Shown: piece by piece, positions 57,101 through 58,092 of the stretch | How the letters are laid out: each line of letters starts with the position of its first letter | Numbering within the stretch: the stretch's first letter is position 1 | Source: Myxococcales bacterium | GTDB lineage: Bacteria > Myxococcota_A > Polyangia > Haliangiales > Haliangiaceae | Assembly: GCA_016708565.1 (NCBI GenBank) | Contig: JADJFN010000037.1 | Span: 64,001 to 128,000 of the forward strand | Length of the DNA: 64,000 nucleotides | Reading direction: 5' to 3' | Notes under the pieces: model-generated | The model's input: only the letters and a program-made list of their open reading frames with translations | Told to the model about the DNA's origin: nothing | Databases searched by the model: none | Program-made: the position numbers and the translations under genes

Positions 57101-57205
57101 GACTTCTTCGGCCGAAGGTCCTTCATTGCCGCCGACGATCAGGTGAAGTTTCATCGTTTCCCGGAGCTGGAGTACCCGCCGTCAGCGGACCAAGTCGATC
57201 CATGA
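54131..57205 (+). CDS. DUF4157-like zincin (HEAAH) multidomain protein, toxin-like (paralog A)
   Basis: 1024-aa [69 protein letters not shown]. The central region and a ~300-aa C-terminal domain ([22 protein letters not shown]...) are shared with 60808..63915. D/A/P-rich linker with [20 protein letters not shown] repeats. Confidence 0.8.
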
Positions 57206-58092
57206 GTTGCTTCACCTATCCTGAGTTCTACACATGCTGTGACGGGCGGTTTCTCGTTCGCCGTCGTTTGATTCTGGGCACGGGGATCTACGACGGAATC
57301 CGGACTAGCGATCAGCGGCCTCTTCTCGTTACCAGCGTTCAGCCCCATCGACTCGATAGCTTGATCGATGCGATCACGTATGAGGTACCAGGCACGACCA
57401 AGCTCCTGGGGGTTACACAGATCGATCTCGGCTCGTGGCAGCCGCAGCCAGGCGATGACCTTGACGATCCGTGCATCGACACAAAGGAGGACCTCCCTGA
57501 AGGATTCGTGCTGGTCGTCGAGACGCGGCCGGTTGGGCGGTCCCTTCGCATCCTGGGCCCAGGCGGGCCGCTGGGCGCTGTCGGTATCGGGCACGGGCTC
57601 CTTCTGACCGCGAGCGCCGCCGCACAAGCGGACGTGTTCCTCGAAGGGATCCGACCCGAGACCGTGTATGCGGACGGCGACCTGTACAGCGGATGTCATG
57701 CACGCCTATGGCGCGTCGAGATGAGCCCACGGCGGCAAGCCGAGTTCCGTGGAGCCTTCGAACCCGGCGGCTTCTTTGCGCCGGAGATCCTGTGCTCTGA
57801 ACCACCGACGCCGACCAGCGATGCGTTTGCGGCGGCGGCGGTACTCTGGTGGTTCGCCACTGGCAGCGATCCGTTCGGTGGTGCGAACGTGGACTTCACC
57901 CAGCGAATCGTCGACGGCCAGCTCGAGCCGTTCCAAGGACCTCCCGAACTCGGCGAGGTCCTGGTGCCGATGCTGGCGCGCGATCCCGCGGCCCGGCCGT
58001 CGGCGGCCGAGTCGGCGGATCGCCTCGCGGCGCTGGCCTGTCGCTGGGATGTGCCCATCGCGCCGTTTCCGCCGCCCGGGCTCGATCAGTGA
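57202..58092 (+). CDS. protein-kinase-like fold protein with degenerate catalytic motifs (probable pseudokinase)
   Basis: ATGA overlap with the upstream gene. Gly-loop-like [10 protein letters not shown] without the VAIK Lys. Catalytic-loop-like [14 protein letters not shown] without the HRD Asp. FFAPEIL APE motif. [20 protein letters not shown] subdomain IX-like. Confidence 0.65.

Follow-up and report, generated by a model that had tools for sequence, protein, structure and literature searches.

A stretch of 64,000 nucleotides from a Myxococcales bacterium (GenBank assembly GCA_016708565.1, contig JADJFN010000037.1, positions 64,001 to 128,000), referred to here as the window, encodes a degenerate protein-kinase-fold protein, PK1, directly downstream of a gene for a long DUF4157 protein of polymorphic-toxin type. 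We consider it probable that PK1 is the cognate immunity protein, or inhibitor, of the C-terminal domain of that toxin. Immunity is the best reading because the pair is conserved over many loci with differing N-termini, the constant partner of the pseudokinase is the C-terminal domain, and the pair is duplicated. The toxin-immunity cassette is a known kind of system; what appears to be new is the fold of the immunity partner, together with the toxin domain.

The open reading frame (ORF) for PK1 is, by sequence comparison, a genuine conserved gene, since it has 13 close homologues (33-100% identity) and pairwise ratios of nonsynonymous to synonymous substitution among close relatives of 0.12-0.26, with purifying selection acting on the toxin gene and PK1 alike. 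The closest relatives come from Myxococcales metagenome-assembled genomes; the G+C content of the window is about 72%. A preliminary description, made from the letters of this DNA alone, had quoted five kinase-like motifs, and all are present in the translation in the order given: a Gly-loop-like motif (aa 23-32), LLVTSV (aa 41-46), a catalytic-loop-like motif (aa 147-160), FFAPEIL (aa 191-197) and a last subdomain motif (aa 206-225). The PK1 sequence as read, no predictor having been run, has no N-terminal hydrophobic stretch, and it contains no transmembrane (TM) segment.

Sequence profiles reach the kinase superfamily through the C-lobe. The Pfam Pkinase family (PF00069) matches only residues 190-270 (E 0.0011, 18.8 bits), below its gathering cut-off of 31.7 bits; the NCBIfam scan gave kinase matches that were far sub-threshold (MAD6, LanL); and in a phmmer search of the PDB the MLKL pseudokinase came out best (6bwk_A, E 3.9e-5), together with many kinases. 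AlphaFold2, given 11 family sequences, produced a model (predicted local distance difference test [pLDDT] 69, predicted template-modelling score [pTM] 0.75) whose elements follow one another as in a kinase: β1-3, α-C, β4-5, α-D/E, β7-8 and α-F to α-I. Foldseek found at least 1991 PDB matches to this model at E<=1e-3, and all 50 among the matches listed are protein-kinase-domain structures (ERK3, ABL, GAK, TRIB2 and others), aligned over approximately 265-350 columns with template-modelling scores of 0.54-0.65. As modelled, then, PK1 has the full bilobal kinase fold, with an N-lobe β-sheet plus α-C and a helical C-lobe.

The pseudokinase family, 150 database relatives and PknB were aligned on one hidden Markov model (HMM) with hmmalign. 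In this alignment the β3 Lys of VAIK is replaced by T44 (LVT44); HRDvKPaN of PknB faces L-E-G149-I-R151-P-E-T154, which puts G149, R151 and T154 in place of Asp, Lys and Asn; and DFG faces H166-A-R168, with H166 for the Asp. Since none of the four catalytic residues is left (β3 Lys, HRD Asp, catalytic-loop Asn, DFG Asp), PK1 is, judged by its sequence, a pseudokinase. P194-E195 of APE, D207 (the subdomain IX Asp) and R265 (the subdomain XI Arg) are invariant in 12 sequences, and the APE Glu and the subdomain IX and XI residues are also retained across the wider family alignment. R151, E153 and R168 are conserved close to the former active site; the glycine loop is poorly conserved in the family. 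The preliminary description had predicted a pseudokinase from a β3 region lacking Lys, a catalytic loop other than HRDxKPxN and the loss of Lys and Asp, with an intact APE motif. Each of these observations stands, the catalytic loop reading LEGIRPET and E195 of FFAPEIL being invariant, and the loss extends to the Asn and the DFG Asp. That description would have given up the claim if the catalytic residues turned out to be displaced or the fold unlike that of kinases; no conserved Lys, Asp or Asn occurs at shifted or nearby positions in the family alignments, and the predicted fold is kinase-like.

The upstream protein, toxin 1, consists of eCIS_core, a weak ASH/Ig-like region, a helical or hydrophobic middle, a Pro/Ala-rich linker and a C-terminal domain with JAB-like features. 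According to the literature (Geller et al. 2021, PMC8213781; PMC3482391), DUF4157 is the PVC-metallopeptidase marker of toxins of extracellular contractile injection systems (eCIS) and Photorhabdus virulence cassettes (PVC), and the toxin domain of such proteins is C-terminal, after long linkers. Toxin 1 has the N-terminal DUF4157/eCIS_core with HExxH that marks eCIS-associated toxins, the motif itself (HEAAH, aa 143-147) having been read off the sequence. The coupling of PK1 to a toxin-like gene, also part of the earlier account, is borne out by this domain and by the ATGA overlap of the two genes (Table 1), and 4-nt overlaps of the ATGA type recur at five other loci (L001, L005, L016, L019 and L021). 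A second toxin-pseudokinase pair lies at 60769-64000 of the window. Toxins 1 and 2 are 57% identical over aa 519-1024, and their 220-aa C-terminal domains are 74% identical (alignments A4/A5); the first 29 residues of the second pseudokinase, PK2, are identical to those of the database protein P0005.

Two HMMs, A1 for the pseudokinase and A4 for the C-terminal ~220 aa of the toxin, were used in a six-frame scan of all fetched loci. These locus contexts were collected via pseudokinase homologues; word-indexed searches with the C-terminal domain gave 2-3 fragments and missed known full-length toxins. A short pseudokinase comes immediately after the C-terminal domain twice in the window and also in L001, L005, L008, L009, L010, L011, L013, L016, L019 (a TARA ocean contig), L021 and L023, so that the pair is found in some 13 distinct loci, with a spacing that ranges from -4 to roughly +20 nt. 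The domain is preceded by N-termini of at least four unrelated kinds: those of 1024-1056-aa proteins with eCIS_core, of a longer eCIS_core protein (1678 aa), of a protein of 1092 aa in which Pfam finds no domain, and of a giant of 2186 aa that has proline-rich repeats. Since the N-terminal parts differ between loci, the pseudokinase tracks the C-terminal domain and not the delivery module. Identity between lineages is 22-48% for the toxin domains and 22-35% for the pseudokinases, and the two distance matrices are correlated (r = 0.92 for all pairs, 0.53 for distant pairs; Mantel p ~2e-4). The domain stands at the extreme C-terminus in 12 of approximately 14 loci and occurs in soil, freshwater and marine metagenomes; tblastn against plasmids gave no match to it. 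Pseudokinase genes are also found as orphans (L002/L003), and L027 (2-2162) carries three in tandem, one of them a fragment, about 35% identical to one another and joined by 4-nt overlaps, with no toxin gene visible on this short contig. In these respects the orphan and tandem copies would resemble what is seen for immunity genes.

The first pair is polymorphic between strains. The 4.6-kb segment that holds it is absent from GCA_943370995.1, where 113 bp (L005 4308-4420) stand in its place between flanks 97-98% identical to the window. The segment has a lower G+C content at third codon positions (GC3) than the remainder of the window; GC3 is 0.73-0.75 for PK1 and the C-terminal domain of toxin 1, versus 0.93-0.97 for toxin 2. 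By these comparisons the toxin 1-PK1 cassette is a strain-specific insertion with atypical GC3. At the borders of the segment the only candidate for a target-site duplication is an 8-nt chance match. The toxin 1 5′ region (54035-54327) shares 77% identity with the sequence that precedes toxin 2, a hint that toxin loci have recombined with each other. One C-terminal domain on different N-terminal regions, a small, co-oriented and co-varying downstream gene, orphan and tandem copies of that gene, and presence/absence polymorphism of the cassette are among the features by which polymorphic toxin-immunity systems are recognized, and these four are found here. Linkage, orphans, tandems and insertion together match the behaviour of polymorphic toxin-immunity cassettes.

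What the C-terminal domain might be is suggested by a few conserved residues: E841-W842, H872-x-H874-P and P-S914-x-x-D917 in toxin 1, or E...H[STN]HP...PSxxD across the family. HxH-P and PSxxD occur in every sequence that covers them (10 C-terminal-domain sequences plus L026), and the Glu in 8 of the 8 sequences that cover its region; P0019 and L019 are without it. Toxin 1 thus has the JAB/JAMM catalytic residue pattern E...HxH...S-x-x-D, and E, H[ST]H, S, D is the signature given for JAB toxin domains in PMC3482391. The spacing departs from the canonical one by an insert of 29-45 aa between HxH and SxxD. Searched against Pfam in native form, one of 11 sequences matched RadC-JAB, at E 0.1, and nothing else was found. 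With the insert removed, a test that is partly circular because the deletion was designed on the JAB hypothesis, nine of nine matched the Pfam family Prok-JAB, at best with E 0.0035 and 17.5 bits (cut-off 25 bits), two of nine matched RadC-JAB below threshold, and one other family appeared as a chance match at E 4.5; the top PDB matches of these equally circular constructs were BRCC36, an MPN protein and AfJAMM (E 0.13-0.9), with the motifs in register. On this sequence pattern the domain is rather likely to be a JAB-like hydrolase, and it is unannotated and appears to be new as a toxin domain. A profile search of the PDB gave L-lysine 3-hydroxylase as its only match (E 0.021), which we set aside as spurious since the motif residues do not align.

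The pseudokinase belongs to a wider family. An exhaustive profile search returned 261 representatives at E<=1e-10, true kinases scoring below the family members. Most of the 150 relatives listed are stand-alone proteins of 220-300 aa, and they have in common G-[IL]-R-P-E-x-[VI]-[YF] where kinases have HRD, and G-x-x-P-R where kinases have DFG. Their source annotation is 'hypothetical protein', and Pfam recognizes the C-lobe at most. Some relatives of 350-590 aa, such as P0063 (L024 7001-8539), have N-terminal extensions and the same RPE and PR motifs. Three long proteins, P0022 (1715 aa), P0126 (1331 aa) and P0157 (2911 aa), contain 5-8 separate matches to the pseudokinase profile each and could be multi-kinase-domain proteins or fused arrays. 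A 13-residue acidic insert was considered as a universal surface motif that could plug a metal site; it is confined to the main clade and L013, and we have not used it.

We picture the cassette as follows. The toxin would be a long multi-domain protein whose N-terminal DUF4157 marks a delivery route of the PVC/eCIS type and whose last ~220 residues form the harmful domain, probably a JAB/JAMM-like metal-dependent hydrolase. The pseudokinase would be translated from the toxin mRNA by ATGA stop/start coupling, would remain in the cytoplasm, and would bind the C-terminal domain stoichiometrically, blocking it in the producer and in sister cells. The rigid kinase fold would serve purely as a binding scaffold, with no phosphate transfer expected because the active-site Lys, both Asp and the Asn are gone. 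Physical binding, neutralisation, and the toxicity and chemistry of the C-terminal domain are the parts of this scheme that we infer.

Several observations weigh against immunity as we have drawn it. Many PVC/eCIS toxins are reported in PMC3482391 to be without immunity genes. When 20 long ORFs of the window with high GC3 were scanned with Pfam, none gave an eCIS structural domain (sheath, tube, baseplate, AAA); about 12 other listed ORFs fell outside that scan. The native C-terminal domain has no significant match in Pfam, NCBIfam or the PDB, and its AlphaFold2 model (pLDDT 41.6) is too poor for the fold to be read, so toxicity itself is something we infer. In L026 the domain is internal to the toxin and is followed by another domain of ~230 aa, and L020 starts at the end of the domain, after which a long acidic tail precedes the pseudokinase; a domain that is not terminal in these two loci could be a processing or accessory domain and not a warhead. 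Finally, the extended relatives of the L024 type lie in housekeeping-like surroundings (aconitase, response regulator, PQQ propeller) with no toxin link, and the fold family is thus not exclusively immunity-related. The same contexts make it probable that the immunity clade was recruited from an existing stock of bacterial pseudokinases. In favour of immunity, the toxin of L026 (1-3184) is followed by two small genes, a 256-aa weakly HEAT-like ORF and then the pseudokinase, an arrangement that resembles a toxin with two warheads and a pair of immunity genes. L020 probably has the C-terminal domain further upstream in the same gene.

The arrangement in L026 and L020 is also what one would cite if the JAB-like domain were a processing or maturation peptidase of the toxin, with the pseudokinase as its regulator or inhibitor, silencing it until delivery. 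Polymorphic toxins often carry releasing peptidases, as noted in PMC3482391, and toxins 1 and 2 have a hydrophobic segment in their middle region that might itself act as the effector. Yet the domain occupies the usual position of a toxin domain in 12 of about 14 loci, the proteins already contain the DUF4157 metallopeptidase, which is thought to process, and inhibition of a processing peptidase would be almost the same in mechanism as immunity; we regard this explanation as unlikely. An accessory role for the pseudokinase, as a chaperone, adaptor or activator in the folding, stability, loading or activity of the toxin, seems to us slightly less likely again. Translational coupling and co-divergence suit any obligate binding partner, and accessory proteins are known for other toxin classes (the LXG partner proteins, for example), but it is usually the N-terminal trafficking domain that a chaperone or adaptor goes with, whereas the pseudokinase follows the C-terminal domain over at least four N-terminal types, and toxin-less orphans and tandem copies suit immunity better than a chaperone.

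There is little to recommend a view of PK1 as an active, atypical kinase-fold enzyme that uses non-canonical residues to modify the toxin or a target covalently in the manner of SidJ or SelO. These proteins were once called pseudokinases and proved to be enzymes (PMC12599244, Table 1), and R151, E153 and R168 of PK1 could be counted in favour of such a role. SelO and SidJ, however, keep the β3 Lys (WHLK, VAVK) and the first DFG-equivalent Asp (DYG, DLG) (PMC12599244), while in the PK1 family the Lys, both Asp and the Asn are lost throughout, no alternative acidic or Lys residues are conserved, and the glycine loop is, as described, poorly conserved. Least probable of all is that PK1 is one of the usual signalling pseudokinases of a myxobacterium rich in kinases and a chance neighbour of the toxin gene. 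The source genome is Myxococcales-like and related N-terminally extended pseudokinases do occur in housekeeping contexts, but adjacency in approximately 13 loci of different lineages and habitats, with the 4-nt overlap, and insertion or loss of the pair as a unit already contradict it. A HipA-like toxin kinase of a type II toxin-antitoxin system was considered and rejected, the kinase-fold protein here being the dead partner and the upstream protein a secreted-type toxin of more than 1000 aa.

Within the immunity reading, a more speculative version, which we would not rate as likely, makes the pseudokinase a decoy: the JAB-like hydrolase would attack Hanks-type Ser/Thr kinases, and the immunity protein would be an uncleavable, tightly binding copy of a former target kinase. 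Myxobacteria possess such kinases in great abundance. In plants, decoy pseudokinases (ZED1, RKS1, PBS1-type decoys) guard against bacterial effectors, and they too are dead kinases that bind an effector evolved to attack kinases; they differ in organism and pathway, and kinase targeting by the toxin is here only a proposal.

Compared with what has been described, the toxins of the window resemble the polymorphic toxins of PVC and eCIS (PMC3482391; PMC8213781) in their N-terminal DUF4157 with HExxH, long linker and exchangeable C-terminal domain, and in the small co-oriented gene directly downstream. They differ in that the C-terminal domain matches no catalogued toxin family, in having a conserved partner where many PVC toxins are reported to lack an immunity gene, and in the lack of eCIS structural genes among the window ORFs scanned. 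Tox-JAB-2 (DUF4329) and Tox-JAB-1 are likewise C-terminal polymorphic-toxin domains with an adjacent immunity gene, and E, H[ST]H, S and D are listed for Tox-JAB-2; their immunity partners are Imm-NTF2 and Imm65 (PMC3482391), versus a pseudokinase here. The present domain differs: Pfam searches out to E<=10 match it to neither DUF4329 nor Toxin-JAB1, and it carries the 29-45-aa insert between HxH and SxxD.

Among kinase-fold proteins, MLKL aligns with PK1 over C-lobe subdomains IX-XI, a stretch of ~70 residues, with no functional or evolutionary link beyond the superfamily. SidJ of Legionella, an active, calmodulin-dependent glutamylase, is similar in being a kinase-fold protein that counteracts a toxic partner, SidE, encoded nearby. 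SidJ keeps the β3 Lys and the DFG-equivalent Asp (PMC12599244), whereas PK1 lacks all four catalytic positions and is therefore predicted to act by binding only. The described families of bacterial Hanks-type pseudokinases (ActPs1-3, GLW, CP1, DYD, DLHK) and EssB/YukC resemble PK1 in that their VAIK, HRD and DFG motifs are degraded and that they presumably act as scaffolds without catalysis, and EssB is also tied to a toxin-secretion system (PMC12599244). The PK1 family differs from them in having xVT/IT for VAIK, G-[IL]-R-P-E for HRD..N and x-P-R for DFG, and in consisting of stand-alone proteins of ~250-300 aa that are predicted to be cytosolic, with no TM segments or extra domains; PK1 is linked to a toxin domain and not, like EssB/YukC, to a secretion machine. 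Compared by description, none of the seven families matches PK1 in motifs or architecture (PMC12599244); the GLW family, for instance, has GLW for HRD, a poly-Leu β3 and a C-terminal TM segment, as against EGIRPE, LLVTSV and no TM segment in PK1.

Table 1. Features of the two toxin-pseudokinase pairs (window coordinates)
Feature	Position	Strand	Basis
Toxin-type protein 1, 1024 aa	54131..57205	+	ORF; eCIS_core match; homology to paralogue
DUF4157/eCIS_core of toxin 1, aa 92-154, HEAAH aa 143-147	54404..54592	+	Pfam E 2.5e-12
C-terminal ~220-aa domain of toxin 1, presumed warhead	56543..57202	+	Conservation, HMM matches
ATGA start/stop overlap, toxin 1/PK1	57202..57205	+	Translational coupling
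Pseudokinase gene PK1, 296 aa, presumed immunity protein	57202..58092	+	ORF, homologues, fold model, alignment
Degenerate catalytic loop LEGIRPET, aa 147-154, replacing HRDxKPxN	57640..57663	+	HMM alignment
4.6-kb segment: toxin 1, PK1, 5′ part of next ORF	53895..58472		blastn vs GCA_943370995.1
Paralogous toxin-type protein 2, 1048 aa, eCIS_core aa 131-184	60769..63915	+	ORF, Pfam, alignment
C-terminal JAB-like domain of toxin 2	63250..63909	+	A4 HMM, E 2.3e-134
5′ end of second pseudokinase gene PK2, cut by window end	63912..64000	+	ATGA overlap with toxin 2 stop

The surroundings of the two pairs are varied. Between them (58112-60104, +) lie three small ORFs of 164, 234 and 265 aa, none with a match in Pfam or NCBIfam; the second has hydrophobic segments and the third a lipoprotein-like N-terminus, and both are common to L005. 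The toxin locus is immediately preceded by a polysaccharide export and biosynthesis cluster (43531-51139, +; Poly_export/SLBB, Wzy_C, a Wzz-AAA_31 tyrosine-kinase-like gene, Polysacc_synt_2) and a PhoD gene (51796-53889); the cluster and PhoD are conserved in L001 and L005. In these syntenic loci a 665-aa WHD-AAA ATPase gene directly follows the pseudokinase (L001 10943-12940, L005 10940-12937), and no eCIS structural genes occur within 10 kb of the pair. An equivalent of this gene probably lies just past the end of the window, and a link to the loading ATPases of the eCIS type is possible. A third DUF4157/eCIS_core protein (824 aa, 35719-38193, +, E 5.6e-15) has a different C-terminal region, with a weak match to DUF4198, and is followed after 24 nt by a 561-aa ORF with no Pfam match (38217-39902, +); together they may form a further toxin-partner pair, of another type. 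A reverse-transcriptase ORF at 23406-25097 (+; RVT_1, E 1.6e-16) could belong to a retron, a diversity-generating retroelement, a group II intron or a defence system.

The immunity proteins of polymorphic toxins are usually small and fast-evolving, with no enzyme ancestry. No kinase-fold family is listed among the immunity families in the portion of the Zhang et al. catalogue available to us (PMC3482391), and full-text searches of the literature found no pseudokinase immunity protein; the remark in the preliminary description that pseudokinases as toxin partners are barely described agrees with the literature searched. If our interpretation is right, a family of dead kinases of ~250-300 aa would extend the repertoire of immunity proteins by a new fold, and bacterial pseudokinases, which are largely without known functions, would gain a concrete and testable job. 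A second outcome is a toxin domain that had not been annotated and that is probably a JAB hydrolase of divergent sequence, enlarged by its insert. Being compact and duplicated in one genome, the pair offers a system for the study of recognition specificity between toxin and immunity protein and of the reuse of a kinase scaffold for inhibition. Should the decoy proposal prove correct, it would mean a new class of toxin target and a new origin for immunity proteins, and the cassette would be a bacterial counterpart of the decoy pseudokinases of plants.

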